Shown: piece by piece, positions 313 through 17,830 of the stretch
Position numbering within the stretch: position 1 is the stretch's first letter
Layout of the letters: each line of letters opens with the position of its first letter
Source: an uncultured Candidatus Saccharibacteria bacterium
GTDB taxonomy: Bacteria; Patescibacteriota; Doudnabacteria; UBA920
Length of the DNA: 64,000 nt
Assembly: GCA_964532005.1 (NCBI GenBank)
Contig: CAZHER010000003.1
Coordinates: 21,399 to 85,398 of the forward strand
Direction of reading: 5' to 3'
Notes under the pieces: generated by a model
The model's database searches: none
Seen by the model: only the letters and a program-made list of their open reading frames with translations
What the model was told of the DNA's origin: nothing
Translations under genes and position numbers: made by a program

Positions 313-800
313 GGCTGGTATTTAGAAATTAGTTCTTGACCTTGGGTTATTTTATCAAACTTGTCTATTATAAGAGTATTATTTAGGTGGTCGATTTCGT
401 GCTGAATTACTCTAGCTAAAAATGTATCATCAGTGACTGTAAATTGTTTTCCTTCGATATCGTATGCTGTCATGGTGATTTTTTTGGGCCTTGTGACATG
501 GCCAAACACTCCCGGCATCGACAAACAGCCTTCTTCCATTGCTTCAGTTTCTTCCGATGTTTCCGTTATGATCGGATTTATTATGGGCATTCCACCAAGG
601 CCCGCCTCGGGAAGGTAGATTAAAGCCAGATCCAGACTTTCGCTCACCTGCGGCGCGGCCAAACCCACTCCGTTGGCAGCTTTGACTGTTTTTACCATAT
701 TATGTAAAAGACGAATATCTGACTTTTTTAGTGGAAACTGGATTTTTGTTACCGGGCGTCTCAGTACTTGGGCCGGTAGTTTGGCTATTTGTAAGATCAT
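309..800 (-). CDS. def: peptide deformylase
   Basis: All three PDF motifs are present: GLAAPQV, EGCLSMPG and QHEIDHL. Confidence 0.9.
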   Translation of the reverse strand: MILQIAKLPAQVLRRPVTKIQFPLKKSDIRLLHNMVKTVKAANGVGLAAPQVSESLDLALIYLPEAGLGGMPIINPIITETSEETEAMEEGCLSMPGVFGHVTRPKKITMTAYDIEGKQFTVTDDTFLARVIQHEIDHLNNTLIIDKFDKITQGQELISKYQP

Positions 801-1084
801 TATCCCGATTTGTCCTGTTTAAGTTCTTCGTTTCGTTTTTTGATTAAATATGCAAAAAGCTTGCCCGGAGTTTTAACGGATTTATTTTCCAATACTTCAC
901 CAGCCAGACGTCTTAAAACATTATGGTCATGCAACCCAGCTTGTTTTAAATAAAATCCGAAATGCTTCGGATCGTTAAATTTTCGGCTCAGCTCATCTGC
1001 CAAAAGGTGGTCGGGGGAGTGCAGATACTGATTTTTGACAGGCTTAGTCAGTTTGTTTGTAAATTTATTTTCAACTTTTTCCAT
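800..1084 (-). CDS. hypothetical small protein, translationally coupled to def (1-nt TAATG overlap)
   Basis: 94-aa ORF with no recognisable motifs and no clear SD. Confidence 0.35.
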   Translation of the reverse strand: MEKVENKFTNKLTKPVKNQYLHSPDHLLADELSRKFNDPKHFGFYLKQAGLHDHNVLRRLAGEVLENKSVKTPGKLFAYLIKKRNEELKQDKSG

Positions 1085-1148
1085 ATGCTTATTATAACTT
1101 ATTTATATAGTGGGCAAAAGCCCAAATTTTCAGTATAATTAATGCTGT

Positions 1149-1979
1149 ATGTTCAATTATAGCGTTTCAAAAATTACTGCTATAGCAATTGTATTATCTC
1201 TCACAGGCATAGCCTGGGTGCAGCGGGACGCCCTAGCTGAACTGTTGATCCGCATGGGCGGTTTTTCAGGGTTTCAGCGCGTACTAAACTTCGTTCATAA
1301 AGACACAATCCTACCTGAACCATTAAGCTATATTAGCTCGGGACAGATGGGGGATTTGACCGTACAAGGAGTGATACAAGAAACCAATTCTCAGCGTGAC
1401 AAGAAAGGTTTGCCGCCGCTACGCGAAAATTTGCAATTAGACAAATCCGCTCGTTTAAAAATGCAAGACATGTTTAACAAGCAATATTTTGAGCATGAAT
1501 CGCCAGATGGCAAAGGTCCTTCCGACTTGGCTGATGAAGTTGGCTACGAGTACTTAATGGTGGGTGAAAATTTAGCAGAAGGCAGTTTTCAGAGTGATCT
1601 TGATTTGGTTCAAGCATGGATGGACAGCCCCGGACATAGAGCAAATATTTTACATAATAAGTTTCAGGAAATAGGCGTTGCCGTGGGTAAGGGAAAATTT
1701 GAAGGACGAACTGTCTGGATAGCTGTTCAGAGTTTTGGAGTACCAGCTTCGGTATGCATACACCCTTCCAACTCAAGTCAGCAAAAAATATCTCAAAATA
1801 ATAAAAGGATCAGTGAATTGAAGAATCAGGCAGATGTTGCCAAGCAAATCGGTGATGTTGAGGAATATAATAATTATGCTACTCAAATAAATCAACTGGT
1901 CTCAGAAACAAAAATATTGGTTAACCAGTACAATGACAGTGTTGATGTTTATAATTCTTGTTTGGAGGCAAATTCCTAA
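1149..1979 (+). CDS. CAP/SCP/PR-1 domain secreted protein (YkwD-like) with N-terminal signal anchor
   Basis: N-terminal hydrophobic segment; CAP-domain signature GENLAEGSF...AWMDSPGHRANIL...GVAVG. Confidence 0.7.
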   Translation: MFNYSVSKITAIAIVLSLTGIAWVQRDALAELLIRMGGFSGFQRVLNFVHKDTILPEPLSYISSGQMGDLTVQGVIQETNSQRDKKGLPPLRENLQLDKSARLKMQDMFNKQYFEHESPDGKGPSDLADEVGYEYLMVGENLAEGSFQSDLDLVQAWMDSPGHRANILHNKFQEIGVAVGKGKFEGRTVWIAVQSFGVPASVCIHPSNSSQQKISQNNKRISELKNQADVAKQIGDVEEYNNYATQINQLVSETKILVNQYNDSVDVYNSCLEANS

Positions 1980-2803
1980 TGGCTCGCGTTTCTATTGCTG
2001 GTTTAATGGTCGATACTGACCCGGCAGAAGCAATTTTTCATAAGATACGTTTGCGTCTGCGAGAAAACAAAAAAACTTTTATGGTGACGCCCTATTCAGA
2101 ATTTCTATACGCTGCTATGCAGGACAAGGCAATTATGGGTTTGCTTAATACAGCTGATATTTCTGTTCCAGACGGAATAGCGATTGTGTTAGCCAGAGCA
2201 TTTTTGCAGAAACCTTTGAGTTTTAAGAATCGATTATTGAAACAAATGCAAGGGTGGTGGCAGATGTATTGGCTAGGCATGGGGCTTTTGTTTTCCAGAA
2301 AAAAAGTTTATGGTCCGTTTAGTTCAAAAGTTGTCGGAGCAGATTTCGTATGGAAAATCGCTGAAGCAGCAGCACTCGAGAAGAAATCTATTTATGTTTT
2401 GGGAGGATTCGGTGATACACCTAAGATAACCGCGGAAAAATTACAGGAAAAATTTCCCGATCTTAATATAGCAGGATTTTCTAACAAACCTAAGACCGAT
2501 CAATCTCTTGTTGCTGACATACAGTCTGCACGACCAGATATTCTGTTGGTCGGTTTTGGTCCCATAGTACAGGAGCGGTGGATCAAATCCCACTGGGATA
2601 ATTTGCCAATATCGCTAGCAGTTGGTTTGGGGGGGACTTTCGACTATATAGCAGGAGCAAAGTCTGCTCCTCCTCGCATTATGAGAAGCTTAGGTCTGGA
2701 ATGGCTATATAGGCTATTTACCCAGCCTTCACGCGCAGGAAGGATTAAAAATGCCACTTTTGGCTTAGTTAAGGCTTTGATTAACTTCAAGGCTTCTGTA
2801 TAA
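1979..2803 (+). CDS. WecB/TagA/CpsF-family glycosyltransferase
   Basis: Family motifs DISVPDGIAIV, SIYVLGG and ILLVGFGPIVQERWI. The ORF track starts it at 1958, but the ATG at 1979 overlaps the upstream stop as TAATG and is the more likely start. Confidence 0.7.
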   Translation: MARVSIAGLMVDTDPAEAIFHKIRLRLRENKKTFMVTPYSEFLYAAMQDKAIMGLLNTADISVPDGIAIVLARAFLQKPLSFKNRLLKQMQGWWQMYWLGMGLLFSRKKVYGPFSSKVVGADFVWKIAEAAALEKKSIYVLGGFGDTPKITAEKLQEKFPDLNIAGFSNKPKTDQSLVADIQSARPDILLVGFGPIVQERWIKSHWDNLPISLAVGLGGTFDYIAGAKSAPPRIMRSLGLEWLYRLFTQPSRAGRIKNATFGLVKALINFKASV

Positions 2804-2825
2804 TAAACTGTAACTCACAAAATTT

Positions 2826-4343
2826 ATGATAGAGACAGGATCTAAAATTAGAACCCGATTTGCTCCAAGCCCCACAGGTCATATTCATGTTGGAAATTTC
2901 CGTACCGCATTGTTTGCATTCTTGTTTGCCCGCCACAATTCCGGAGTGAACGTCCTTCGTATTGAAGATACAGATCAAAACCGCCTCGTAGAGGGAGCGG
3001 TTGAAAGTTTACTTTCGGTTATGCGGAATATGGGAGTGGAGTTTGATGAAGGGTATCACTTAAAAGAAGACGGCAGTCTGGAAACCAGAGGTGAGTATGG
3101 GCCCTACGTTCAGTCGCAAAGGTTGGATATTTACCATAAGTACGTTCAAGATTTAATTGATGGAGGGTATGCTTACTACTGTTTTTGCAGTAGCGAGCGT
3201 TTAGATGAAATTCGCAAAGAACAGATTGCTTTAAAGAAGCCACCGATGTATGACAGGCATTGCCGGAATCTTGCTAAAGAAGAGGTTGGGTCAAAAATTG
3301 CTGAACTAAAATCCGAAGGCAAAAACCCTGTGGTGAGACAGGCAATACCAACAGAAGGACAGACCGTAGTGCACGACATTATTTACGGCGATATTACTTT
3401 TGACAATTCAATATTAGATGACCAAGTAATTTTGAAATCCGATGGTTACCCCACTTATCATTTAGCTGTTGTTGTGGACGATCATTTTATGGAAATTTCT
3501 CACGTTATCCGCGGTGAGGATTGGATTAATTCTACCCCAAAACACGTATTGCTGTATCAGGCTTTCGGTTGGCAACCGACAATATTTGCACATGTACCAA
3601 ATATTTTGAATCAGGACAAAACAAAGCTTTCAAAAAGACAGGGGGATGTAACTGTTGAGGACTTTCTTGCTAAAGGGTATCTAAAAGAAGCTTTGGTAAA
3701 TTTTGTCGCCTTTTTAGGTTGGAATCCAAAGACAGAACAAGAACTGTTTTCTATGGAAGACTTGATTCGAGAATTTGACCTCGCTAAAGTTAACCGCGCT
3801 GGTGCAGTATTCGACCAAAATAAACTTGATTGGATGAACGGCTTGTATATTAGAAGCAAGACCAACACAGAATTGGTGGACATGGTTCAGTCATTTTGGA
3901 AAAATAGCGGCGTAGATGTGGAAAAATATAGCAAGGAATATTTAGAGGGTATAGTATCGTTAGAAAAAGAGCGGATGAAAAAGCTATCCGATATCACAGA
4001 CAGTACCTCGTACTTTTTTAGTAGGCCAAAAGTAGCAAGTAATTTGCTTGTGTGGAGAAAAAGTAATTCTGAACAAACAGGCAAGGTATTGCAGGATCTT
4101 GTTCGGTTTTTCGATCAGACTGATGATACAGATTTTGTGAAAGAGACACTAGAGTTGAAATTAAAAGTTTTTATCGAAACTAACAACTATGACAATGGTA
4201 CAGTGCTGTGGCCTTTGAGATATGCTTTAACTGGTATGGAAAAAAGTCCTGGGCCTTTTGAAGTTGCCTCCGTGCTTCATTTAGGCTTAGGAAAACAAGA
4301 GATTATTGAACGTTTAAAACTAGCTGAGCAATCTTTGTCGTAA
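2826..4343 (+). CDS. gltX: glutamyl-tRNA synthetase
   Basis: Class I HIGH motif (PSPTGHIHVGNFRTALF) and KMSKS-like KLSKRQ; 505 aa. Confidence 0.9.
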   Translation: MIETGSKIRTRFAPSPTGHIHVGNFRTALFAFLFARHNSGVNVLRIEDTDQNRLVEGAVESLLSVMRNMGVEFDEGYHLKEDGSLETRGEYGPYVQSQRLDIYHKYVQDLIDGGYAYYCFCSSERLDEIRKEQIALKKPPMYDRHCRNLAKEEVGSKIAELKSEGKNPVVRQAIPTEGQTVVHDIIYGDITFDNSILDDQVILKSDGYPTYHLAVVVDDHFMEISHVIRGEDWINSTPKHVLLYQAFGWQPTIFAHVPNILNQDKTKLSKRQGDVTVEDFLAKGYLKEALVNFVAFLGWNPKTEQELFSMEDLIREFDLAKVNRAGAVFDQNKLDWMNGLYIRSKTNTELVDMVQSFWKNSGVDVEKYSKEYLEGIVSLEKERMKKLSDITDSTSYFFSRPKVASNLLVWRKSNSEQTGKVLQDLVRFFDQTDDTDFVKETLELKLKVFIETNNYDNGTVLWPLRYALTGMEKSPGPFEVASVLHLGLGKQEIIERLKLAEQSLS

Positions 4344-4345
4344 AT

Positions 4346-4375
4346 TTGGCTAAAACTTCAGTTTTGTGCTATAAT
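4346..4375 (+). promoter_or_regulatory. sigma70-like promoter TTGGCT-18 nt-TATAAT (with TGc extended -10) upstream of the M23 peptidase gene
   Basis: Hexamers at 4346-4351 and 4370-4375, about 12 nt before the ATG at 4387. Confidence 0.4.
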
Positions 4376-4386
4376 GTTGCCATAAT

Positions 4387-5673
4387 ATGAAGAAAAGCCA
4401 TAAAGAAATAAAAACAAAAATATTATATTCTGCCATCTCGGTCGGTCTTATATTTGGGGCCGGTTTTTTGGTTTTTAATTCAGTTTCAGCAGAAACAAGA
4501 CAACAATTACAAGACAAGCTCAGCAACCTTAACAGTAAAATAGGGGAGCTGACCCAAAATGTAAATCGGTTACGCCAACAGGGAGCCACTTTAAAAAACG
4601 AAATTGAGATATATGATTCTCAGATTGCTTCTACAGAATTGGAAATTCAAGCTAACAACACCAGGATTGCAGATATCACCTTGCAGATAGAAGATATCCA
4701 GGTACAGATAGAAAGGAGAGAAAAGGAAATTGCGGATAACAGGAAAATTTTAGCAGAGCTGGTGGTTCAACTGAATGAATTAGACAACAACACTTTTTTG
4801 ACCATGACTTTGGGAAGCGATAATTTTTCATCTTTCTTAGACCAAGTGCAATACACGAAAAGCGTAAATCAGCAGGTGTACGATCTGGTTCAGAAAATAA
4901 AAGATGTAAAACAAAAATTGGAAGATCAGCAAAAAGAACTGAAAGCCCAATTACAGCGCTTAAGCGAACTAAAAGAGGAATTAGAACAAAATCAAGCAGC
5001 TTTAGACGAGCAACGTTCCTCAAAGCAAACCTTGTTAAGTCAAACCCAGGGACAAGAGGGCAAGTATCAAAAAGCTTTAGCTGCCAGCCGCAATGAGCAA
5101 GCTGATGTTCTTCAGGAAATTCAAGGTTTGGATGCGAAAGCTCGAGGTAGCGGGAGCAAAAGTATTGCTGCAAGCAAAGGTGTGCTGGCTTGGCCGATGG
5201 AAGGGGTAATGACTCAAGGATACGGCAACACCGGCTTTACTTCTTTGGGCTATAATTTTCATAACGGTATAGATATTGCAGCTCCTGCTGGCAGGCCAAT
5301 TTACGTTCCGGCAGATGGTACGGTGGTTCGCTGTGCTGGCGGAGCTGCCGCATACGGCAACTGGTGTACTATCAAGCACACCATCGCTACTAAGTCTGGA
5401 AACAGACAAATAGTTACTTTGTTTGCCCATATGACAAAATATGTTTTATCCGGCGGACAAACTGTCAAACGAGGAGACCTGGTCGGTTATGAAGGGAATA
5501 CCGGGAACACCTCTCGTTTGTTGTACGGCCCTGACCGAGGGTATCATTTGCATTTTAGTGTTTTTGATGCAGACGGATTCACCATTACGCCAGGAAAATA
5601 TTCAGCAACTTATGGTCCTTATTTCGTGCCAAGCGGATATACGTATAATCCTTTAGACTTTTTAGGAAAATAA
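4387..5673 (+). CDS. secreted coiled-coil protein with C-terminal M23 (LytM) metalloendopeptidase domain (EnvC-like)
   Basis: Signal peptide, a long heptad-rich coiled coil, then M23 motifs HNGIDIAAP...GRPIYVPADGTV...YHLHFSV. Confidence 0.8.
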   Translation: MKKSHKEIKTKILYSAISVGLIFGAGFLVFNSVSAETRQQLQDKLSNLNSKIGELTQNVNRLRQQGATLKNEIEIYDSQIASTELEIQANNTRIADITLQIEDIQVQIERREKEIADNRKILAELVVQLNELDNNTFLTMTLGSDNFSSFLDQVQYTKSVNQQVYDLVQKIKDVKQKLEDQQKELKAQLQRLSELKEELEQNQAALDEQRSSKQTLLSQTQGQEGKYQKALAASRNEQADVLQEIQGLDAKARGSGSKSIAASKGVLAWPMEGVMTQGYGNTGFTSLGYNFHNGIDIAAPAGRPIYVPADGTVVRCAGGAAAYGNWCTIKHTIATKSGNRQIVTLFAHMTKYVLSGGQTVKRGDLVGYEGNTGNTSRLLYGPDRGYHLHFSVFDADGFTITPGKYSATYGPYFVPSGYTYNPLDFLGK

Positions 5674-5678
5674 CATAG

Positions 5679-6869
5679 ATGACACAAAAACAAAAAATTT
5701 ATAAGCTGGCTTTGGGAACAGCTTTGCTGTCTTTGCAGTTTTTGTTTTTTGTACCAGGTGCTGAGGCTCAAAACAACACCCCCACCAACAGCACTCCAGC
5801 AAATGAGCAAGGAAGATATGTAGGCAGGGGAGTGGAAGCTTCTATTCGCAGGCTTTTGTGTGCTCCTTCTGATTCATCAAGCGTACCAACCACCAATGGC
5901 GCAGTTGGTACCACAGTAGCCAAGGGAAGCAGCTCATCTCAAGACCTTTCCAACTGTATCAACAGGGGATATCGCTTTGCCCTAGCTTTCGGAGCAGTAG
6001 CTGCAGTATTCTTTTTTGTTCTTGCAGGGTATATGTACATGGTAGGTGGAGAAAATGGCAAACATGAAGCCAAGAACGTAATTATCTCTGTTATTGTTGG
6101 TTTTCTCATTATGTTATCTTCCTTTGTCCTGTTGCAACAAATCAATCCCACCTTAGTTTCCTTCCGCACCATTCAACCACCTCAGCTGGGGGGACAATAC
6201 TCACTCTTGCCTTCTTGTAGTGATTTAAAGCTTGGTATTGGTGAAGATTGTCAATTTGAGGATGGTTCGCCAGGAGTAAGCAACGGAAATGGCGGTGGCA
6301 TGACTCCACAAGGCGGGACAATGACTGGCAAAAGCGGCAAAGTGTGTAGTATGGGGAAAGACGAAGATTTGCAAACCCATGCTAAATGTAGCTTAGACTC
6401 GCGTTTGGAAAATGCATTTCAGGCTGCGGCTCGTGAGACAGGGATTGACGCTAATTTTATGAAAGCCATTGCTACAAAAGAGAGTCATTGGGATGAGTCC
6501 GCTATAAGTTGGACTAGATGCTGCAAGGGTCTTATGCAAATGTCAGACGCCACAGCAGCAAGATTTGGCTGTACTGGAAACGATTGGAAAACCAAAGGGG
6601 AAGTTATTATTCCTTGCGCAGCACGATATATGAAATATTTACGCGATAAATACGCTGGGAATGATTATGTTAAAATTGCTGCAGGTTATAACGCAGGTGA
6701 AGGCAGGTTGTCCCCAAGTCCGAATTGTCCTGGTATGGTAGTGGCTCTCTGCCCATTCAGAGACGCCGCCCAAACTGCTTGCATAGTGGGTGTAAATTCT
6801 TTAGAGCAGACGCGAAATTACGTTGTCACAGTGGCCAGATTTTATAATGAATATAAACAATGTCGATAA
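5679..6869 (+). CDS. T4SS-pilin-like (TrbC/VirB2-type two-TM hairpin) N-terminal module fused to SLT lytic transglycosylase domain
   Basis: Signal peptide; TM hairpin FALAFGAVAAVFFFVLAGYMYMVGGENGKHEAKNVIISVIVGFLIMLSSFVLL; C-terminal SLT signature KESHWDES...GLMQMSD...AGYNAG. Confidence 0.6.
   Translation: MTQKQKIYKLALGTALLSLQFLFFVPGAEAQNNTPTNSTPANEQGRYVGRGVEASIRRLLCAPSDSSSVPTTNGAVGTTVAKGSSSSQDLSNCINRGYRFALAFGAVAAVFFFVLAGYMYMVGGENGKHEAKNVIISVIVGFLIMLSSFVLLQQINPTLVSFRTIQPPQLGGQYSLLPSCSDLKLGIGEDCQFEDGSPGVSNGNGGGMTPQGGTMTGKSGKVCSMGKDEDLQTHAKCSLDSRLENAFQAAARETGIDANFMKAIATKESHWDESAISWTRCCKGLMQMSDATAARFGCTGNDWKTKGEVIIPCAARYMKYLRDKYAGNDYVKIAAGYNAGEGRLSPSPNCPGMVVALCPFRDAAQTACIVGVNSLEQTRNYVVTVARFYNEYKQCR
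5771..6193. repeat. copy 1 of an exact 423-bp direct duplication (second copy at 7544-7966, offset 1773 bp)
   Basis: Nucleotide strings compared block by block are identical. The identical 77-aa antisense ORFs at 5939-6172 and 7712-7945 confirm it. Boundaries are set by mismatches at 5770/7543 and 6194/7967. Confidence 0.85.
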
Positions 6870-7417
6870 TCCAACAATATAAGATATACTTTGTAGCAGG
6901 TTTTATCCTAATTTTGTTAGGGGTTGTGGCCGCAGTATATATATTTAAAGATGATTTAAAATTTGGAACCAGTTCAACAACGAATAAAATAAAAGTTGAA
7001 GGGAAACAGACAGAGGAGACAAAAAAATTATCCGAGCAGTTAAATTACCCTGGTAGCCCGCAAAAAGAGATTTCCGAAGACTGGATTTATTATAAAACTG
7101 ACCAGGGTTCAATCCGGATTAAGAATTTTTTCCCAAAAGACTATGACCCTTCAACCACCAAGCCATTTTTGATTACTGATAATGCTGATTATAAAATTGA
7201 ATATATAGCCGATGGAGACATGTATGAGGTGACTCTTAAGAGTACCAAAGGTAACCTGCAACAACTTCGTCAGAAAGCTGAGCTGGAGCTGGTAAATAAA
7301 TTTGGCACAAATAAATCAGATATTTGCCAATTACCAATTTTTGTTTATGAAGAAAATATAGATGCTTATAGGCCGAACAAATATAATCTAGGCCTGACAT
7401 TTTGTCCTTTAAATTAG
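6860..7417 (+). CDS. hypothetical membrane-anchored protein
   Basis: N-terminal TM (FVAGFILILLGVVAAVYIF); otherwise no motifs. Overlaps the upstream gene by 10 nt. Confidence 0.4.
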   Translation: MSIIQQYKIYFVAGFILILLGVVAAVYIFKDDLKFGTSSTTNKIKVEGKQTEETKKLSEQLNYPGSPQKEISEDWIYYKTDQGSIRIKNFFPKDYDPSTTKPFLITDNADYKIEYIADGDMYEVTLKSTKGNLQQLRQKAELELVNKFGTNKSDICQLPIFVYEENIDAYRPNKYNLGLTFCPLN

Positions 7418-7427
7418 TTAAATCAAA

Positions 7428-8672
7428 ATGATGACAAAGAATAAATTATTTAAAAGTTTGTTATTAGGAGTATTATTACTTGGGATATTATTCTCATATT
7501 CTTCAATAGCACAAGCAGACATAATTCCCAATCCCGTTCCTACAAACAACACCCCCACCAACAGCACTCCAGCAAATGAGCAAGGAAGATATGTAGGCAG
7601 GGGAGTGGAAGCTTCTATTCGCAGGCTTTTGTGTGCTCCTTCTGATTCATCAAGCGTACCAACCACCAATGGCGCAGTTGGTACCACAGTAGCCAAGGGA
7701 AGCAGCTCATCTCAAGACCTTTCCAACTGTATCAACAGGGGATATCGCTTTGCCCTAGCTTTCGGAGCAGTAGCTGCAGTATTCTTTTTTGTTCTTGCAG
7801 GGTATATGTACATGGTAGGTGGAGAAAATGGCAAACATGAAGCCAAGAACGTAATTATCTCTGTTATTGTTGGTTTTCTCATTATGTTATCTTCCTTTGT
7901 CCTGTTGCAACAAATCAATCCCACCTTAGTTTCCTTCCGCACCATTCAACCACCTCAGCTGGGGGGCAATTATACCATTGCTTCTTGCAAGGAGTTAGGT
8001 TTGGGAGATGACTGTGGTAGTCCCTCGGGAGATAATGGACCAGCTGATCCGAACGAAAACAGCCCTGTTGGGGATGGCCAAGAAAAAAATGGGGTAGTAT
8101 ATGGAGGGGGACGCTACAGGAATTTCCCTAGATTTGCCCAGACAGATCCACCATGGGCTCCAAAGAAGTATGGTAGGCAGTCCGGGTGCAGTACATATTA
8201 TGACGGAGGCTGTGGCCCTTCTGCATTTGCTGCCATTGCCCAGTATTATTACCAAAATGGAGGGGCTAAAATTTCACCCGACATCGCTTCTAAATATGGA
8301 AATCAAATTAATCCATTCACAGTCGGTGAATATGCAGTTGACAAGGGCCAAAGGGCTTGTCCCGGTGGTTCTTACGGGACGTTGGCTGCAACTGTAGCGC
8401 CAGCTTTTGGTTTAAAGGCGCAGCCAGCAGGATGGGGTACGATTGTTACAAATCTTGAAAAGGGCGTACCAGCTTGGGTTTCAATGGGAGGACTACCTTT
8501 TACTACGGGCGGACATTTTATTGTGTTAATTGCCAAAAAAGGAGATGAGATATACATTGTAGATAGTTATAAAAGAAATATTACTAGAGCAAAAGCTAGT
8601 ATAGTGCAAGCCCACTTCAAATATGGCTCTGTTGTCACATCGCCAACATTTACTCCACCAGTGCCAAATTAG
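7428..8672 (+). CDS. T4SS-pilin-like N-terminal module (identical to 5679-6869 over about 140 aa) fused to C39/papain-like cysteine peptidase domain
   Basis: Signal peptide, the shared TM hairpin, and a C-terminal Cys...His...Asp arrangement (GGCGPSAFAAIAQYY ... GGHFIVLIAKKGDEIYIVDSY). Confidence 0.6.
   Translation: MMTKNKLFKSLLLGVLLLGILFSYSSIAQADIIPNPVPTNNTPTNSTPANEQGRYVGRGVEASIRRLLCAPSDSSSVPTTNGAVGTTVAKGSSSSQDLSNCINRGYRFALAFGAVAAVFFFVLAGYMYMVGGENGKHEAKNVIISVIVGFLIMLSSFVLLQQINPTLVSFRTIQPPQLGGNYTIASCKELGLGDDCGSPSGDNGPADPNENSPVGDGQEKNGVVYGGGRYRNFPRFAQTDPPWAPKKYGRQSGCSTYYDGGCGPSAFAAIAQYYYQNGGAKISPDIASKYGNQINPFTVGEYAVDKGQRACPGGSYGTLAATVAPAFGLKAQPAGWGTIVTNLEKGVPAWVSMGGLPFTTGGHFIVLIAKKGDEIYIVDSYKRNITRAKASIVQAHFKYGSVVTSPTFTPPVPN
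7544..7966. repeat. copy 2 of the exact 423-bp direct duplication
   Basis: See copy 1 (5771-6193). Confidence 0.85.
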
Positions 8673-8685
8673 TCATGTTAAATAT

Positions 8686-10083
8686 ATGATGCATAAAATA
8701 ACAATATTATTATTCTCAGCGTTTATGTTTATAGGGCTCGGATTATCCCCGGTCACTGCGCTGGCCCAAGCCCCAGGTAGCCAGGGGCTGGTTCCTTGCG
8801 GTAGTTTTTCTGACAATCCCTGCCAGTTGGTAGATCTTTTCAATTTAGTCATAACTATTACCAACTTCTTAATCGGCATGGGTGGCATCGTAGCAGTGGT
8901 GGTGATAATTTATGCAGGTTGGTCTCTTGTACTTGCAGCGGGAAATGTTGAAGCTGTTACCGTGGCAAAAAAATTACTTGTTAATGCTTTTATCGGGTTC
9001 TTTTTTGTAATGATTGCTTTCGCCGGAGCTAATTTTCTCATTTTTGGAGCTCGCGGCTTTATAGTCGGCGAGCCAACCCAAGGCGGAACCCCAGTAGGTA
9101 TTTTTGTTTGCCCAATAGATTACTTGCTCGGTTATGCTGAGTGTGGCAATTCAGGTGGCGGGGGAGGTAATACAACTAACAACACCCCTGCAAATACACC
9201 TACCAATAATACAAATACCCCTACGAACACTCCCAATTTACCTTTTCAAATCCCTCCAGGCAGAGGAATAGGTGAAACAGCAATGTCATTAGAAGTCATT
9301 CCTAAAGAGAGAGATTCATGTCCAATAGGTCAAACTGCTTGGGTAGAAAATTTTTTTTTGATCAAAACAGCTTTCGCTCAAACACCACCATCTGACTGTG
9401 GGAGTGTTGCCGACGGATATTTAGCCGGTCCAAGGCATGATACTTTTCCTGATGATGTCATAATCCAACAAGATCTTAACATTCAGTTAGGGAGCCCTCG
9501 AAATAAAACTTGCAGTTCGGTATCGCGCGCTGGTTGTGGCATGATTTCAATGATCCACGCAATAAAGTTTATGCAGAAAAAGGGATATGTTTACGCAGGA
9601 TCTTGGACAAATGCATGGCACAATGAAGGCAACTTAAATCCTATATCTCGAATCACTGATCCAACTTGGTGGCCAAGGATATACCAAAATAACACAGGCT
9701 ATTTTACTTGTGCAAACAATGGAGCTGTTTATCATAGTGCTCCATCAGATATAATGAAAGATGGACAAATACTTAGAAATGTAACAGCATACCAGTCTAC
9801 TGCTTCTGGTGGTCCTGCTTTATTGGAACAAGTAAAGTTAGCTCTAGAAAGAAATGGGGTAGCAATAGCTCTTGTAAAAGGACCCCCGTTTAATACAGGA
9901 AATGCTGGGAATCATTTTATTCTTATATACAGACAATACTATGCTCAGTCAGATAATAATAAATTGTGGTTTGCTGTTGCCGATTCAAACAAGTATGCTC
10001 AAATTGGTCAGGTAAGATATGATGTTTTACAGAATCATCTTACTGGAGTAACAGTTATTTACCCTACAAGCTCGACTCCTTAG
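8686..10083 (+). CDS. T4SS-pilin-like protein (LVPCG...PC...NFL motif plus two-TM hairpin) with Asn/Thr/Pro linker and C-terminal C39/papain-like peptidase domain
   Basis: Signal peptide MMHKITILLFSAFMFIGLGLSPVTALAQA; QGLVPCGSFSDNPCQLVDLFNLVITITNFLIGMGG; linker GNTTNNTPANTPTNNTNTPTNTP; catalytic-like AGCGMISMIHAI ... GNHFILIY ... VADS. The ORF track starts it at 8623, but the ATG at 8686 precedes the signal peptide and is the more likely start. Confidence 0.6.
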   Translation: MMHKITILLFSAFMFIGLGLSPVTALAQAPGSQGLVPCGSFSDNPCQLVDLFNLVITITNFLIGMGGIVAVVVIIYAGWSLVLAAGNVEAVTVAKKLLVNAFIGFFFVMIAFAGANFLIFGARGFIVGEPTQGGTPVGIFVCPIDYLLGYAECGNSGGGGGNTTNNTPANTPTNNTNTPTNTPNLPFQIPPGRGIGETAMSLEVIPKERDSCPIGQTAWVENFFLIKTAFAQTPPSDCGSVADGYLAGPRHDTFPDDVIIQQDLNIQLGSPRNKTCSSVSRAGCGMISMIHAIKFMQKKGYVYAGSWTNAWHNEGNLNPISRITDPTWWPRIYQNNTGYFTCANNGAVYHSAPSDIMKDGQILRNVTAYQSTASGGPALLEQVKLALERNGVAIALVKGPPFNTGNAGNHFILIYRQYYAQSDNNKLWFAVADSNKYAQIGQVRYDVLQNHLTGVTVIYPTSSTP

Positions 10084-10629
10084 TTGAAAATAATAGAAAA
10101 GAGCCTCGAATTTCGTGTTCGAGGCTCTTTTGCTTGTATGGACGATCTTTGATTCTAGCTCGTCCAAAATTTCTTCCAGTCGGTTTTGCCAAAAGCGTTG
10201 GTTTTTTTCGCCTTCGACATGCTGCAGTCGAAATTCGCGAAAATATTTCCGTTCGCCAGCAGGGTCGAGACCGAAATCGACTGTGCCATCTGTCTGATCG
10301 TCGGCGATTACCTCGCCTTCTTTTGTCTCGATTGTCAGAGACGTATCCGAGACTAATGAAAAGGTAACTGTGCCGCCGCTTTTCAGGTGGCACTTTATGC
10401 TTTCCATTTTTTCCCCGTCTTTTTCAATGTCAACAAGGGAGCAGATCCCATCGCTAGGACCCATAAACATTGAAACAACCAGCAGCTTTTCCTGCCGTTG
10501 AACCTTTTGGAGGTTCGCCGGCAGGTCAGGCGTTTTGGTGTTATTTGACGGTCCTCGCTGACCGACTTCTAGACACGCGACCATAATGACGAATACAATC
10601 ATCCATAAGAATTGCCTTAAATTTTGCAT
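10027..10629 (-). CDS. hypothetical secreted or lipoprotein (GC-rich ORF); 3' end uncertain
   Basis: N-terminal signal (MIVFVIMVAC). The ORF reads through the terminator hairpin and overlaps the convergent gene by 57 nt, so the true C-terminus is doubtful. Confidence 0.35.
   Translation of the reverse strand: MQNLRQFLWMIVFVIMVACLEVGQRGPSNNTKTPDLPANLQKVQRQEKLLVVSMFMGPSDGICSLVDIEKDGEKMESIKCHLKSGGTVTFSLVSDTSLTIETKEGEVIADDQTDGTVDFGLDPAGERKYFREFRLQHVEGEKNQRFWQNRLEEILDELESKIVHTSKRASNTKFEALFYYFQLRSRACRVNNCYSSKMIL
10097..10131. terminator. rho-independent terminator hairpin (gagcctcgaa / ttcgaggctc) with T-run, downstream of the + gene ending at 10083
   Basis: Perfect 10-bp GC-rich stem, 7-nt loop, then TTTT. 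It lies inside the 3' end of the minus ORF 10027-10629. Confidence 0.6.
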
Positions 10630-10798
10630 AAGTCCCTCCTAAAGACTGTTTTGCGGTTTTTTCTTAGGCCTTAGCCTGAAGTTAAGTTTGAGACACTGAT
10701 CCCATCTTAACATATAATTATAGCATATTTTATATATTTTGTCAATAACAGATAAAACCTATAACTATTACCTAAAATAGGGAATAGGGTATATAGCA

Positions 10799-10827
10799 TT
10801 GACATAATAGATTTTTTAATATATAAA
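10799..10827 (+). promoter_or_regulatory. sigma70-like promoter TTGACA-17 nt-TATAAA upstream of the VanX-like gene
   Basis: Hexamers at 10799-10804 and 10822-10827, in an AT-rich divergent intergenic region. Confidence 0.35.
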
Positions 10828-10890
10828 TAAGCACAATCTAGTGCAGCAAAACACCTGCGGGTACAGATAAATTTAAACGAGGAAACAATT

Positions 10891-11595
10891 ATGAAAAAAA
10901 CTTTTCTTATTTTGCTTTTAATCTGTGCCGGAAGTTTTGCAAGTTGCAAAATTGGCACAGTAGAAAACCAACTACCGGCGAGCGGAAGCAATCTACCAAC
11001 AAATTCCCAGAGCGCAACCAATCGCAAGTCCTTGCCTCCCAAACAACCACTATCAACGAAAGCCGATCCAGCTAATCGTTCTCCAATAGATTCAATGGTT
11101 CAGGCAACAGACTTCATTCCGCTTTTACAAGAGGACATGCGTTATGCAACCACCAACAATTTTATGCACCGTAAGTTGTATGACAACCCAAAATGTTTTT
11201 TGCTGAAAGTGGTAGCACAACACCTGAAACAAGCCGATGATTATCTTCAAACCAAGAAGCCGGGCTCTCGGCTCAAAGTTTGGGACTGCTACAGACCAAT
11301 GTTCGTCCAAAAGATGATGTCTGAATCAATTCCGGATAGAAGATATGTTGCAGATCCCAAGCAAGCGAAGCATCCTAAAGGGTTAGCAGTGGACGTTACA
11401 ATCGTGGACAGCTTTGGCAGGGATCTGGAAATGCCAAGCGAGTTTGATGATTTTTCTGCAAGAGCCGCTGCGCGCGGTGCAATGACCAAGGCTGCGGCTG
11501 AAAACCTGAAGTTGCTCCAGCAGGTGATGATGACCGCGAACTTCGTGGGTATTAGTTCTGAGTGGTGGCACTTTGAGTATATTGGTCCGCTTTAA
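10891..11595 (+). CDS. D-Ala-D-Ala dipeptidase, VanX/M15D family, lipoprotein
   Basis: Lipobox (LLICAGSFASC); M15D motifs MRYATTNNFM, DCYRP..Q, HPKGLAVDV and SEWWHFEY. Confidence 0.8.
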   Translation: MKKTFLILLLICAGSFASCKIGTVENQLPASGSNLPTNSQSATNRKSLPPKQPLSTKADPANRSPIDSMVQATDFIPLLQEDMRYATTNNFMHRKLYDNPKCFLLKVVAQHLKQADDYLQTKKPGSRLKVWDCYRPMFVQKMMSESIPDRRYVADPKQAKHPKGLAVDVTIVDSFGRDLEMPSEFDDFSARAAARGAMTKAAAENLKLLQQVMMTANFVGISSEWWHFEYIGPL

Positions 11596-11643
11596 GTCGT
11601 ACCGTATCAAACAAGCAAATTAGCAAAGGTCCGATCGAAGATT

Positions 11644-11680
11644 CCGGTATTTCCAATTCTAGGGTACCGGTTTCTTTTTA
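11644..11680 (+). terminator. possible terminator (ccggta...taccgg stem, T-run)
   Basis: 6-bp palindromic stem with 14-nt loop followed by tttctttttattt; weak stem. Confidence 0.3.
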
Positions 11681-12001
11681 TTTATGACGATCGTCTAGAA
11701 TTAAAATATATAGATAGAATTAGCTATTGCCAAAAAGACAGTATAAATGATAATTTTAGTAATATATTTTTTATAACAATAGTAAAGGAGTCTAGAAATA
11801 GAGAACAGTTATTAGTATTAATTTGTATTGGTTAGCATTTAGAATTTTTTTTTCACAATTAATAGTTAGCTAGTTGTTTAATAAAGTCTCATTATATTAT
11901 GTCGTATAACATACATTATCAGACGTAAGAAACATTGAGTTTTGTGGGTTTTGGCCTATATTCCCCAGTTTAAATAGGTGGTTCCCTGCTATACTTTAAA
12001 T

Positions 12002-12628
12002 ATGAATTTGCAAAATAGAAATATACGAGTTCTTATTCGCAAATTGGCTCGCAAACCTACACTGGCCGGAGTATTGGTATTGGTTTTGTTGCTTGGCTTA
12101 GTGTGGTGGCAAGGCCAGGGGCCCGTTCCAGATGAAGACGCTCCCCTGCTTGAGGGCCAAGAAAAAAATATTGAAAAAGAATTTGTACAAGATGGTATTT
12201 ATTTTGTAGAAGAAGTCATTGACGGCGACACTATATATATTGAAACAGATGATGGAGATAGTGAAAGCGTGAGGCTTATTGGTATTAATACTCCAGAGAC
12301 AGTTGATCCTAGAACTGAGGTTGAATGTTTTGGTAAGGAGGCTAGTATAAAGACAACTGAGTTGTTGCAAGATCAAGAAGTACGTATTGAATTTGATCCG
12401 GCCAAAGGTGACCGTGACCAATTCGGTAGGTTGTTGCGCTATGTCTTTTTGCCTGGCCAGACAAACCAGTCCGAACAGAACATTAACAAGCTACTCATTG
12501 AACAAGGTTTTGCTTATGAAAATTCTTACGGCGTGCCATACAAATTTGAAAAGGAGTTCAAGCAAGCACAGATTCAAGCAAAAAATTCTCAGGCAGGCTT
12601 ATGGGCACCAGGCGTATGTGCCAAGTAG
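12002..12628 (+). CDS. secreted thermonuclease (staphylococcal-nuclease-like, SNase fold) with N-terminal TM anchor
   Basis: SNase motifs RLIGINTPET, DQFGRLLRYVF and AGLW. The ORF track starts it at an upstream GTG (11978); ATG 12002 is used here. Confidence 0.7.
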   Translation: MNLQNRNIRVLIRKLARKPTLAGVLVLVLLLGLVWWQGQGPVPDEDAPLLEGQEKNIEKEFVQDGIYFVEEVIDGDTIYIETDDGDSESVRLIGINTPETVDPRTEVECFGKEASIKTTELLQDQEVRIEFDPAKGDRDQFGRLLRYVFLPGQTNQSEQNINKLLIEQGFAYENSYGVPYKFEKEFKQAQIQAKNSQAGLWAPGVCAK

Positions 12629-12665
12629 TCTATAAATCAAAATGAGTATAAAAGATGTTAAAAGA

Positions 12666-12711
12666 AAGAACACTTCGTTGTGCACGATGCACGGTTCAAC
12701 GAAGTGTTCTT
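12666..12711. terminator. bidirectional terminator: 15-bp perfect inverted repeat (aagaacacttcgttg / caacgaagtgttctt) between convergent genes
   Basis: Long perfect stem with a 16-nt loop that is itself palindromic (tgcacgatgcacg). The T-tract is on the minus side and weaker on the plus side. Confidence 0.55.
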
Positions 12712-12744
12712 GGTTTACAAAAGAAATCTACGCCGCCTCGGTCG

Positions 12745-13344
12745 TTATGCATGGCGGAAATTCTTTCTGAGAACGTCGTAGTAGGCTTCCGTAAGGAGTT
12801 CAAACAGGTTGAACTCCTCATATATTTCGGTGTCCCAAAGCTGTTTGGCGTAGTACACCATGGAGTCCACTAACTCTCCTGAAAAGTAGTCATAAAGCAT
12901 GACATGCAAGACAGTGCAAGACAGGTCGTCTTCGGTCGCTACCCCCAGCACCATCTGCACTTCGTTACCAGAGTCGTAGCCAAAGGCATACTCCGAGTGG
13001 AGCGCTAGTCCGCTGGTGTCTGGTCCAGTAACCCCGGCTTTCAAGTTGCTCTCGGGAATGAGCGACTTGCGGGGTTGGAAGAGCAGCAGCGTTTTACCAT
13101 AACACTTCTTGAACCTGGCAATTTTGCCACCGCCGTTGGGATAGCAAAATGCCCGATCCTCCACCCTCAGCAGCTCGGCAAAAGTTTGATCCAACAGCTC
13201 AGGACTGCTGCCGTATCCCAAGTCCCTCAAAATTGCTGTTAGAGCTTTGGTCGCAAAGCTTATCGCAATTTGTCCGCGCTCCTCCGCTGAATTCCTGCTT
13301 TTAAGCAGTCTTTCCAGCTTATCCTTAATTTCTCTCATACTCAT
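12745..13344 (-). CDS. hypothetical protein (GC-rich ORF, compositionally atypical)
   Basis: 199-aa ORF with no recognised motifs; GC visibly above the local background. Confidence 0.4.
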   Translation of the reverse strand: MSMREIKDKLERLLKSRNSAEERGQIAISFATKALTAILRDLGYGSSPELLDQTFAELLRVEDRAFCYPNGGGKIARFKKCYGKTLLLFQPRKSLIPESNLKAGVTGPDTSGLALHSEYAFGYDSGNEVQMVLGVATEDDLSCTVLHVMLYDYFSGELVDSMVYYAKQLWDTEIYEEFNLFELLTEAYYDVLRKNFRHA

Positions 13345-13507
13345 TTAATTTTGCCCGTCCTTCTAGGTTTTTTGTTTTAAAAATCAAAACAATATTTAAA
13401 TATGACATGAATAAGCGAAAATTTCAAATTCCTATGAATTTAGTCAAAAACAAAACAACCCCAGTAAAACAGTTTGAGGTTGGATTGTGTGGAAGCTAAT
13501 TTGTTGA

Positions 13508-13972
13508 TTATTTCAATGACAGGATAGTCATTGAATTTTTCGGGCGGTCATCCGAGCTTAGGCGTTGCGGCTCCTGCGCTTGCAGGATACGGTTTTGATT
13601 TAGAGTGTAAGTTAAGGATACTAGTCCAGTTTGAACAGTCCAGTTAGCTGGTTTTTTGGCGGTCAATACTTTCACGAACCTTCCGGCTATCCAAAAACAC
13701 ATTGGTATCCCAGACAGTAACACTCGATCTCCGGTGGCGACAATGTCGTCTCCAAGTAAAATGTTCCATATGGAATAGAACACTGTTGTGGCGGCTCCTA
13801 GATCTCTTATTGGAAGACAAACCTTCCATTTGCATAGAGCTGATAGGAAACCTATCAAAGAAAAAAACGTCAAAATTAGCAGATGCGTTCCTCCTATCAA
13901 TACGGGTTTAGTGGCACCGTAGGCCAAGATAAAAAAACTAGCGTAAAATACGCTAGCGGAATTATGGCACAA
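13508..13972 (-). CDS. hypothetical polytopic membrane protein
   Basis: Several hydrophobic segments and no motifs; the start is uncertain. Confidence 0.3.
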   Translation of the reverse strand: MCHNSASVFYASFFILAYGATKPVLIGGTHLLILTFFSLIGFLSALCKWKVCLPIRDLGAATTVFYSIWNILLGDDIVATGDRVLLSGIPMCFWIAGRFVKVLTAKKPANWTVQTGLVSLTYTLNQNRILQAQEPQRLSSDDRPKNSMTILSLK

Positions 13973-14014
13973 ACTATGTGGTTTGTGAAGTGTATAAAAT
14001 TGTTATTACCGGCT

Positions 14015-15265
14015 TTAACTTTTGGCTTTATTAAGCTGCTTTATGACAGTAGACAAAGCTTTTACAGTATAGTCTATTTCTTTTTTGGTGTTGTATTTCG
14101 ATAAGGTAATTCTAATGCTGGATAATGCATCCTGCGCAGCTTTACCAAGAGCTAAAATTACATGGGAAGGGTCTGTTGAAGCTGAAGTGCAGGCGCTTCC
14201 CGTTGCAATTGCAACATTGTAACTGTCCATGTAAAACATCAGCATCTCACCTTCAATTCCTTTAATTGAAATATTAATGTTATTGGGCAGTCGTCTTAGT
14301 CCTTGGTTAAACATATTGTTTAGTTTTGTCTTTCTGTCATCTGGTCCATTTATGCTGACTCCCCTAACGGTTTTCAAAATTTGGTTTAGTAGGTAGTCAT
14401 GCAAAGTTTTTATGTTTTTGTTTTGCTTGATGCGGTTTTCTTGGGCCAGCGCAAGAGCTTTAGCCAGTCCAATAAATCCTGCTACATTTTCTGTGCCGCT
14501 TCTAAGATTTCTCTCCTGTCCCCCGCCAAACAATATTGGACGCAAAATAATCCCGGACTTTACATACAAGAACCCGGTTTGCTTGGGAGCATGTATCTTG
14601 CTGCCATTTACCGAAAGCAAATCCACCCCAAGTTTATGAACATTTAAATCTAGACTATTACCAGCCTGGCAAGCATCGCTATGGAATACAATGCTAGGGA
14701 GTTTTGTTGCGATCCTGACTTTGTTTAGTCCAGCAAGCCACTTTCCTATTTCTAGTATTGGCTGAATAGAGCCAACCTCGTTGTTGGCATACATAATAGA
14801 AACAAGAACAGTATTTTTTTTCACAGCTCTTTTTAGTTCATCCAGCTTTATAAACCCATCTTTGTTGACATCTACTAAAGTAATTTGCCACCCTTCTTCT
14901 TTCAGAGCTTCCAAAGAATGCAGTACCGCATGATGTTCTATTGTAGAGGAAATAATATGACCTTTATGTTTGTGATCTAATTCGTATTGCCGTGCAACAC
15001 CAAAAATAGCCAGGTTAATGCTTTCGGTGCCGCCAGCAGTAAAAACTACTTCCTTTGAATTTGCATTTATCGATTCTGCTATGGTTTGGCGCGCCATGTT
15101 TAAGGCGTACGCAGCTTGTTGGCCAGATCTGTATAGGCTGGAAGGATTACCAAATTCTGTCATGTAGTAAGGCTGCATGGCTTTGGCTACTTTTGGGTCA
15201 ATAGCTGTTGTAGCGGCATTATCTAAGTAAATTAGATTTTTAGAAGGTTTTAATTTATTTAACAT
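14015..15265 (-). CDS. cysteine desulfurase (class V aminotransferase, IscS/NifS-like)
   Basis: LDNAATT, SSTIEHHAV, SGSKIHAPKQTG (PLP-lysine motif) and the HSDACQ catalytic Cys loop. The ORF track uses an upstream TTG at 15289; ATG 15265 is preferred. Confidence 0.85.
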   Translation of the reverse strand: MLNKLKPSKNLIYLDNAATTAIDPKVAKAMQPYYMTEFGNPSSLYRSGQQAAYALNMARQTIAESINANSKEVVFTAGGTESINLAIFGVARQYELDHKHKGHIISSTIEHHAVLHSLEALKEEGWQITLVDVNKDGFIKLDELKRAVKKNTVLVSIMYANNEVGSIQPILEIGKWLAGLNKVRIATKLPSIVFHSDACQAGNSLDLNVHKLGVDLLSVNGSKIHAPKQTGFLYVKSGIILRPILFGGGQERNLRSGTENVAGFIGLAKALALAQENRIKQNKNIKTLHDYLLNQILKTVRGVSINGPDDRKTKLNNMFNQGLRRLPNNINISIKGIEGEMLMFYMDSYNVAIATGSACTSASTDPSHVILALGKAAQDALSSIRITLSKYNTKKEIDYTVKALSTVIKQLNKAKS

Positions 15266-15310
15266 ATAAATAATGGTAGCAAAAACCAAGCTACTTGGCT
15301 AAATTTAGAC

Positions 15311-15340
15311 AAAAGAAAAGAGAGGAAAAGTCTTCTTTTC
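15311..15340 (-). terminator. rho-independent terminator for a minus-strand transcript (gaaaag-tctt-cttttc, then TCTCTTTTCTTTT on the minus strand)
   Basis: 6-bp stem plus T-rich tail, between the GC-rich island and the iscS-like start. Confidence 0.4.
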
Positions 15341-15344
15341 AAGA

Positions 15345-15700
15345 GTGCTCTGAAATCTTGCGGTGAGCAAACCTGAAAATAAACTTTTCCCCTCGCGTGG
15401 CGGGCAACCTTACCTCCTAAACTTCAGGAGAAGTGCCCGTGCCCGGCTTGTCCGCCGCTATCCGTTGCGGTTGCCGGAGTCGCTGTTCGCGCCCGCGTCG
15501 CCGATCTTCTTGGTCATAGTCATATTCAAAAGCGCCGGCGGCGATGCGAAAATTTTTCGTTTCATTGTTTTTTCCTCCTGCTTTTTGGGCAGATTTTGGG
15601 GCAGACCGACTCGGTTGGTAGCCCCTTGCCTTTGGAAATGGGACAAACTGCGTCCCGTTTTTTACTCCCACGTACTACAAGGAGTTTACGTATTATAAGT
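15345..15700. other. GC-rich, structure-rich island (unclassified): candidate ncRNA or leader carrying a 35-codon SD-ATG mini-ORF on the minus strand
   Basis: GC far above the flanks, multiple hairpins, terminators on both strands, and AGGAGG-8 nt-ATG (MKRKIFASPPALLNMTMTKKIGDAGANSDSGNRNG). No tmRNA, RNase P or SRP signatures found. Confidence 0.3.
15640..15663 (+). terminator. rho-independent terminator on the + strand (gggac-aaactgc-gtccc-gtttttt)
   Basis: Perfect 5-bp GC stem plus a T6 tail. Confidence 0.5.
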
Positions 15701-17425: not shown

Positions 17426-17440
17426 TTTATTTAATTTACA

Positions 17441-17827: not shown

Positions 17828-17830
17828 CTT

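Follow-up and report, generated by a model that had tools for sequence, protein, structure and literature searches.

A conserved Saccharibacteria operon that probably joins an EnvC-like M23 peptidase to an array of pilin-like modules carrying exchangeable wall-hydrolase heads

An array of genes encoding pilin-like modules fused to cell wall hydrolases has been identified in a 64-kb window (the whole stretch of DNA analysed; forward strand, 21,399-85,398 of contig CAZHER010000003.1, assembly GCA_964532005.1) from an uncultured Candidatus Saccharibacteria bacterium, a tiny organism that probably depends on a host. The proteins encoded by 5679-6869, 7428-8672 and 8686-10083, all on the + strand, have in common an N-terminal T4SS_pilin module (PF18895, VirB2/TrbC-like), and directly follow the gene of a coiled-coil M23 endopeptidase, here called M23cc (4387-5673, +). 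Together, these genes probably form a conserved Saccharibacteria operon in which an EnvC-like M23 enzyme is accompanied by "armed pilins", membrane-tethered and locally acting wall cutters with exchangeable heads. The tethered-cutter architecture itself is predicted with high confidence. The object of interest is this operon, and not the whole 11-kb neighbourhood (1149-12628, eleven open reading frames, ORFs) that a first-pass annotation of the sequence had read as a coherent extracellular toolkit. The functional unit is real, but it is smaller than 11 kb and differently organised. Both the shared module and an exact 423-nucleotide repeat that it contains had been overlooked in that annotation.

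The modules share one layout. A signal peptide is followed by a Cys-bridged N-terminal loop, a membrane hairpin of two helices connected by a short basic loop, and a junction marked by the residues INP...IQPP; then come a linker and the enzyme head. Linkers span 50-100 residues, and are partly rich in N, T, P and G. Export and anchor calls, as well as topology, were obtained by a hydropathy and lipobox heuristic, which in the 5679-6869 protein places transmembrane segments at residues 97-125 and 130-157 behind the signal peptide. In the AlphaFold2 model of the 7428-8672 protein (mean pLDDT, the per-residue model confidence, 64.7) the hairpin helices H95-130 and H132-163 have pLDDT > 90. A signal peptide and two hydrophobic helices separated by a basic loop, which here holds an invariant Lys, are features of type IV secretion system (T4SS) pilins, and were recognised by both heuristic and model. 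The three fusions had been described as secreted: the signal peptide is there, but the hairpin next to it means that they are not free secreted proteins. Stand-alone pilins measure ~100-190 amino acids, and the window proteins, enzyme heads included, 396-465.

ORFs from related loci, 17 distinct ones in genomes and 17 in metagenomes, were searched with the window proteins. The locus scan relied on an alignment of five module sequences, a 19-sequence one being too diverse, and retrieval is biased to close relatives of the module type found in the first two fusions (pilin-A; the module of the third is called pilin-B). A match to PF18895 was found in 23 of the 24 fusions of related loci. At a larger scale, PF18895 recognises 85 out of 127 module homologues (best E = 1e-27), against 6 for PF04956. 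A pilin encoded in a T4SS locus (L020; PF04956, 59.5 bits), beside VirB6, PrgI, VirB4, a CHAP hydrolase and VirD4, matches the modules with E values from 1e-5 to 6e-11. Because of these matches, and of the confidently modelled hairpin, the modules are regarded as probable members of the VirB2/TrbC pilin family. An exhaustive search with the module yielded 2,944 clusters at 50% identity, in which the motifs LCxP...C, INP and IQPP, all outside of the transmembrane helices, are strongly conserved. The canonical Saccharibacteria T4SS loci (L020, 1150-9002; L038, 9839-17691) encode a TrbC/VirB2 pilin, a 483-amino-acid protein, PrgI, VirB4, the CHAP hydrolase and a VirD4-like protein. The 483-amino-acid protein combines a T4SS_pilin module with a TrbL/VirB6 domain, and the pilin module thus serves also as N-terminal module on a channel component.

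The two pilin-A modules contain an exact direct repeat of 423 nucleotides (5771-6193 and 7544-7966, + strand) that corresponds to the mature module: the match begins downstream of the signal peptide and ends at the junction, ...IQPPQLG. The pattern recurs in relatives. In nine of the ten genomes with at least two pilin-A fusions the paralogues have identical modules and unrelated heads, and share exact runs of 259-479 nucleotides that end at or near the junction. Within genomes the median identity is 100% for modules and ~31% for cargo; the median module identity between genomes is 48%. The hypothesis that the 423-nucleotide repeat is an assembly artefact was rejected, since the pattern recurs in nine independent metagenome-assembled genomes from different studies. 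The pilin-B orthologue in L001/L003 is a bare pilin of 194 amino acids, which stops just past the junction and thus marks it as the point at which heads are gained and lost. Among the best 149 module relatives, 135 are at least 300 amino acids long; 127 carry the junction motif, and 113 of these have at least 150 amino acids beyond it. An additional element, P-x-C...G...C, is found directly after IQPP and before the low-complexity linker in 91 of the 127 proteins with junction motif (149 examined). It is probably a small disulfide loop, and could be a hinge or a processing site.

The head of the 5679-6869 protein is an SLT lytic transglycosylase (E = 9.6e-14). A protein identical to this fusion (P0001) is present in the protein collection, and orthologues are 70% and 68% identical in L002 and L001, respectively. 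The 7428-8672 protein carries a papain-like Peptidase_C39_2 domain (28.7 bits, gathering score 24). The C-terminal domain of the 8686-10083 protein, separated from pilin-B by an N/T/P/G-rich linker, had no match in Pfam, but is indirectly linked to C39_2 peptidases: a jackhmmer search seeded with the first C39 domain recruits homologues of this head with E values from 2e-41 to 1e-8, and Cys284, His410 and Asp433 are invariant. The SLT gene overlaps by 10 nucleotides the gene of a 185-amino-acid anchored protein (6860-7417, +), which belongs to no family and matched nothing known in a fold search. Anchored proteins of this type follow only SLT or lysozyme-type fusions, here as in L001 (12457-12999), L014 (9434-9892) and L033 (1863-2309), and could be a cognate inhibitor or a partner of such heads. 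No small partner gene of this type was found downstream of C39 heads.

Heads of the module relatives are almost all wall enzymes. Cargo domains counted were SLT (14), C39_2 (7), M15 (5), M23 (5), M15_4 (4), Amidase_2 (3), SLT_3 (3), GDSL (2), VanY (2) and CHAP (1). At the syntenic loci SLT, lysozyme-like, glucosaminidase, CHAP, GDSL and Hedgehog/DD-peptidase-type heads are found. They fall into two classes, glycan cutters (SLT, lysozyme-like, glucosaminidase) and peptidases, the latter mostly with a Hedgehog/DD-peptidase zinc motif. The commonest head in the relatives (L009, L012, L014, L015, L019) is a domain of ~165 amino acids, unassigned in Pfam, with the invariant pattern GHH...HYxGxAxD...YHIH. 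Its zinc site matches Hedgehog N-terminal domains (E = 0.005), which indicates a putative LAS/DD-peptidase fold. A metagenomic protein of 796 amino acids, P0177 (L021, 171-2561), hosts M23, VanX-like M15 and C39-like heads on one pilin-A module, and its C-terminus is 57% identical to the head of the 8686-10083 protein. As these activities are fused on a single module, they plausibly belong and work together.

M23cc features an N-terminal anchor, a coiled coil of ~220 amino acids and an M23 (LytM) endopeptidase domain (Pfam E = 5.7e-20), in addition to a weak match to CC_PcsB. It can be aligned over its full length (25-377) to chain 8tzk_E, the EnvC subunit of the Vibrio cholerae FtsEX-EnvC complex. 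The catalytic motifs HxxxD (FHNGID) and HxH (HLH) are both present in the sequence, and M23cc looks like an EnvC/PcsB-type protein, predicted to be catalytically intact. The LytM domain of EnvC, in contrast, is degenerate. Genes encoding FtsX (FtsX_ECD and FtsX domains) and FtsE map in the window at 20975-22569 on the - strand, ~15 kb from M23cc, with no hydrolase gene adjacent. Among FtsEX partners, none is known whose gene precedes those of pilin-fused hydrolases. With its anchor, its extended coiled coil and its LytM/M23 domain at the C-terminus, in a genome that encodes FtsE and FtsX, M23cc resembles the coiled-coil components of the FtsEX-EnvC and FtsEX-PcsB division hydrolase systems (8TZK; PMC11627006); it departs from FtsEX-EnvC in the retention of the catalytic motifs and in the distance from ftsEX.

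Genes from M23cc to the last fusion are co-directional, with intergenic gaps ranging from -10 to 13 nucleotides. A sigma-70-like promoter match (TTGGCT-18-TATAAT with extended TG, 10 of 12 positions, a consensus match only) is located at 4346-4375 (+), and could mark where the operon begins. Of the terminator-like sites in the 800-14000 interval, the best is a strong palindromic hairpin at 10097-10131, with a 14-bp stem that includes 6 GC pairs, flanked by runs of A and T. It starts 14 nucleotides past the stop codon of the last fusion, and is likely a bidirectional terminator that closes the operon. Given the tight gaps and the two flanking signals, 4387-10083 has the appearance of a single operon.

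The closest loci all come from genomes of uncultured Candidatus Saccharibacteria/Patescibacteria assembled from metagenomes. M23cc is found directly upstream of one to four pilin-A fusions in all 17 genome loci and in 9 of the 10 metagenome loci with enough flanking sequence, that is in 26 of 27 overall. In the conserved order, def and a 94-amino-acid gene, both leftward, are followed by the rightward genes CAP (optional), WecG, gltX, M23cc and pilin-A fusions; a variable segment separates these from a leftward nifS-like gene and a 122-amino-acid gene. The sole exception is L022 (607-2338), where the fusion is preceded by a 220-amino-acid anchored protein with C39_2-like Cys/His motifs, and a cold-shock gene is found downstream. 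According to the first-pass annotation, its proposal would fall if the proteins were housekeeping autolysins in conserved synteny in free-living relatives. The core is indeed syntenic with def, gltX and the nifS-like gene, and begins with an EnvC-like gene, but the relatives are all Saccharibacteria/Patescibacteria.

The way in which these proteins may act can be outlined. Export by Sec and insertion of the hairpin would put both termini of the module outside of the membrane; such an N-out/C-out orientation agrees with the conserved Cys pair and with the basic loop. Heads would be tethered on their linkers at the outer face of the membrane, and, along with the M23 enzyme, would locally cleave glycan strands and stem peptides. 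Heads would be swapped by recombination at the junction motif, and gene conversion would keep the modules of one genome identical. As to the target, preference is tentatively given to the wall of the cell itself, which may be cut in division or budding, or to open gaps for envelope machines. This choice is suggested by the EnvC-like first gene with its catalytic motifs, the presence of FtsE and FtsX in the window, and the housekeeping neighbourhood. Action on the wall of the host at the contact zone, whether or not the modules are built into a pilus of T4SS type, is conceivable, and held with more reserve.

Several results weigh against the operon of tethered pilin-like cutters. The window modules score 21.6 (5679-6869), 20.5 (7428-8672) and 24.1 bits (8686-10083) with T4SS_pilin, all below the gathering score of 26.6. 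A profile search of the PDB sequences with the module alignment retrieved no solved pilin, only chance matches, and Foldseek, run against the PDB with the AlphaFold2 structure predicted for the 7428-8672 protein, gave no significant match, a helical hairpin matching anything. The hhalign comparison of the module to Agrobacterium VirB2 is colinear but weak (28% probability), and serves as a lead only. Signal peptides and topology were predicted by the hydropathy heuristic alone. Assembly may in part have homogenised the exact repeats seen in metagenome-assembled genomes. No T4SS ATPase or channel gene (virB4 and others) was found in the 64-kb window or beside any pilin-A fusion in ~27 loci, and the link of the modules to a secretion machine is therefore indirect. 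In the cultured model Southlakia ML1 the gltX locus is not syntenic and only short pilins are found, so that its Tn-seq essentiality data do not extend to this array.

Among the alternatives, a host-directed "armed pilus" survives best, though it is judged rather unlikely. A T4SS encoded elsewhere would extract the modules into a VirB2-type filament, heads on its surface would drill the host peptidoglycan, and swapping of heads would fit them to the wall chemotypes of the host. The homology of the module to pilins of T4SS loci agrees with this, as do the outward termini of the pilin in the F pilus (PMC5018250), and identical modules within one genome fit a co-assembly into one polymer. The constant N-terminus, the sharp junction and the variable C-terminus recall polymorphic toxins. 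Epibiotic growth requires T4SS pilin arrays in Patescibacteria, as described for array SEML1_0014-0019 of Southlakia epibionticum (PMC10633639), and the same set of enzymes is encoded in the essential ML1 T4SS locus, with lysozyme-like, cysteine proteinase, M15B, M23 and Hedgehog/DD-peptidase types. VirB1 homologues are scarce in Patescibacteria (PMC12102498), which would also suit action on host walls. Yet no pilin-A fusion is close to virB4 in the ~27 loci, and all but one follow the EnvC-like hydrolase among housekeeping genes. A head of 200-280 amino acids on each subunit probably hinders helical packing. Syntenic heads stay within the glycosidase and peptidase classes, as expected of a conserved core function rather than of an arms race, and neither a pilus nor an immunity gene was seen, the 185-amino-acid partner being confined to SLT/lysozyme-type heads. 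In its bolder form, a VirB2-type filament or T4SS-associated platform with outward hydrolase C-termini would be a "drill" through the host wall, with heads exchanged at INP...IQPP and modules homogenised for co-assembly. This is unlikely; if true, the drill would supply the VirB1 function apparently missing from patescibacterial T4SSs.

The broader proposal of the first-pass annotation, that the whole 11 kb, including CAP, VanX-like and SNase proteins, is one toolkit used to dismantle the wall and scavenge the nucleic acids of another cell, appears improbable. Its factual basis was largely reproduced. Nine of the eleven genes, all but gltX and the glycosyltransferase gene between them, encode an N-terminal hydrophobic segment, compared to ~10 of the 61 other window genes (Fisher's exact p = 4.4e-5, by the same heuristic), and anchored proteins elsewhere in the window are ordinary ones (SPFH, RmuC, a PpiC-type foldase, DivIC); the enrichment in exported or anchored proteins is therefore real. 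The domain calls were likewise all recovered, by Pfam or, for the second C39-like one, by jackhmmer and conserved residues. VanX-like M15 heads are found on the pilin module in seven relatives, and join M23 and C39-like heads in P0177. Moreover, action on the envelope of another cell is a published hypothesis for Patescibacteria, in which lytic transglycosylases have been proposed to compromise host envelopes (PMC11665869). The genes on either side of the operon argue otherwise. While M23, SLT and C39-like genes make up a conserved unit, and their activities are fused elsewhere, the genes downstream are lineage-specific, and neither CAP nor SNase domains were found as pilin cargo.

The CAP/YkwD-like anchored protein (1149-1979, +; Pfam CAP E = 1.5e-16; hydrophobic residues 6-24) is encoded by the first gene of the co-directional string, and its NCBIfam YkwD and DalA matches are under the respective cut-offs. 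A homologue is located at the equivalent position only in some relatives (L001-L005, L010, L024, L030), and is missing there in many others. CAP is accordingly considered a loosely associated upstream gene. The two genes that follow, both on the + strand, encode cytoplasmic housekeeping proteins, a WecG/TagA-family glycosyltransferase (1958-2803; Pfam E = 4e-42) and the glutamyl-tRNA synthetase GltX (2826-4343; Pfam E = 2e-100), and are syntenic in every related locus with enough flanking sequence.

Past the terminator, three genes complete the region. A 200-amino-acid lipoprotein-like ORF (10027-10629, -; lipobox-like motif MVAC at 16) matches no family. It had been called GC-rich, and its GC content does exceed the window average, though modestly (45% vs 40%). 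A sigma-70 promoter with perfect consensus (12/12) and extended TG lies upstream on the - strand (10745-10717). It is doubtful where this ORF truly ends on its 3' side, or whether it is coding at all, because the 10097-10131 hairpin is within its last 35 codons and it overlaps by 57 nucleotides the 3' end of the convergent gene. The next gene (10891-11595, +) encodes a predicted lipoprotein of the VanX/DdpX-type M15 D-Ala-D-Ala dipeptidases (PF01427, E = 8.9e-29, 101 bits vs 27), with motifs HPKGLAVD (H-x6-D) and EWWH (E-x2-H) and a lipobox-like FASC at 16. Since the NCBIfam DdpX-like score is 122 bits against a cut-off of 176, the protein is a member of the family, but not a proven VanX or DdpX orthologue; the predicted lipoprotein location is atypical for VanX/DdpX. 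With the M15 head of P0177 it shares 35% identity (E = 6e-35). The third gene (11978-12628, +) encodes a membrane-anchored SNase-like nuclease (PF00565, E = 2.5e-21, 76.6 bits vs 21; transmembrane 23-50), which matches a NucI-like model (E = 5.6e-34) below cut-off. When the variable-slot genes were scanned with PADLOC, the only match was that of this nuclease domain to the candidate model "SNc+LTD" (E = 5.6e-35), which is insufficient to infer a defence system.

Across the 25 distinct related loci whose flanks could be scored (17 from genomes, 8 from metagenomes), no homologue of these three genes, or of the two hypotheticals next to them (12745-13972), sits at the equivalent position. Gaps are larger (261 and 382 nucleotides), strands are mixed, and GC is mostly above that of the window (0.42-0.50 vs 0.40, and 0.42-0.46 in the first three genes; barely so for the SNase gene, 0.416). 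With the terminator interposed, these features place the VanX-like, SNase and 200-amino-acid ORFs outside of the conserved unit, as lineage-specific occupants of a slot between the array and the nifS-like gene. In most relatives the two are spaced by 0.3-0.7 kb. In L001 (a 681-kb contig; identical to L003) the same slot (15388-20928) is filled by ~9 kb of unrelated small genes, which include SMODS/AGS_C protein(s) and resemble in part a CBASS (cyclic oligonucleotide-based antiphage signalling) pair; this suggests that accessory or defence genes accumulate in the slot. The highest GC of the region (0.50 vs 0.40) is that of a 199-amino-acid ORF (12745-13344, -), which has neither a family match nor a homologue in the related loci. 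The slot sits at a strand convergence point, as genes are on the + strand up to 12628 and on the - strand from 12745, and the convergent layout of array and nifS-like gene is kept in the relatives. The cumulative GC skew reaches a maximum at ~16-18 kb of the window, and the convergence point at 12600-18000 may be a replication terminus.

That the enzymes are unrelated housekeeping autolysins, neighbours by chance, and the pilin match a generic two-helix membrane anchor, is very improbable: the sub-threshold Pfam scores, a hairpin too simple for fold searches to discriminate, the housekeeping neighbours and the EnvC-like first gene would all allow it, but a gene order kept in 26 of 27 loci, a family of 2,944 clusters with conserved motifs outside of the membrane, clear PF18895/PF04956 membership in relatives, and modules that evolve in concert in nine of ten genomes would not be expected if the anchors were unrelated.

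The operon of M23cc and armed pilins can be set beside known systems. VirB2-like (PF18895) pilin arrays have been published for Patescibacteria (PMC12102498, PMC10633639, PMC12857230). Their pilins are small, and often encoded near virB4; arrays include 2-11 pilin genes, in tandem or with one non-pilin gene between, and pilins share on average 25%, and at most 54%, identity (PMC12102498). The array described here has the same Pfam module, comes from the same phylum, the published arrays being abundant in Saccharimonadia, and similarly aligns three module genes (5679-10083) with one intervening gene. Published modules are bare and divergent, whereas here they carry hydrolase heads of 200-280 amino acids, with 100% identity between paralogous modules; an EnvC-like M23 gene beside gltX precedes the array, which never flanks virB4. 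Gram-positive T4SSs encode multidomain hydrolases, such as PrgK of pCF10 (LytM, SLT and CHAP) and TraG of pIP501 (SLT and CHAP) (PMC12102498). Enzyme types are alike (M23/LytM, SLT, papain-like), and in both cases proteins are membrane-anchored, with catalytic domains outside of a single-membrane cell. PrgK and TraG are however single proteins held by an ordinary transmembrane anchor, and their genes belong to the T4SS operon; here adjacent genes divide the activities among them, the anchor is a pilin-like hairpin, and the genes lie outside any T4SS locus.

Polymorphic toxins (CdiA-CT, Rhs, LXG) share with the fusions a constant N-terminal part, a sharp junction (here INP...IQPP), unrelated C-terminal heads, several variants side by side, and a small ORF that follows one of the heads. 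They differ in having a dedicated toxin export, replaced here by Sec and a membrane hairpin, and in being encoded by accessory islands rather than by a conserved chromosomal core; moreover, the fusions carry wall-hydrolase heads of two classes, and the 185-amino-acid ORF follows only SLT/lysozyme-type heads. As defining features of both PrgK/TraG and polymorphic toxins are lacking, the array is best seen as a variant of the known pilin arrays. Effectors of the bacteria-killing Xanthomonas T4SS (X-Tfe) reportedly include peptidoglycan hydrolases aimed at other bacteria, which are said to be cytoplasmic and recognised by VirD4 via a C-terminal XVIPCD. They too are wall-degrading enzymes tied to a T4SS-type apparatus, and differ from the proteins described here, which have N-terminal signal peptides and a pilin module.

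Hydrolase heads on pilin modules, identical modules within an array and a fixed place after an EnvC-like gene were not found described in the open-access literature searched, although the combinations of module and head domains are presumably visible in domain databases. Annotations also stand to be corrected, as such genes are otherwise counted as plain "VirB2", "lytic transglycosylase" or "hypothetical". The locus bears on how Patescibacteria, which make up a large share of bacterial diversity and are mostly thought to live on other cells, breach their own or host envelopes. The proteins described here represent a large, previously undiscussed subfamily in which a pilin module would be the carrier of interchangeable wall-cutting enzymes. 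They are clonable candidates with a clear junction motif, and could connect the pilin arrays of these organisms to a biochemical activity.

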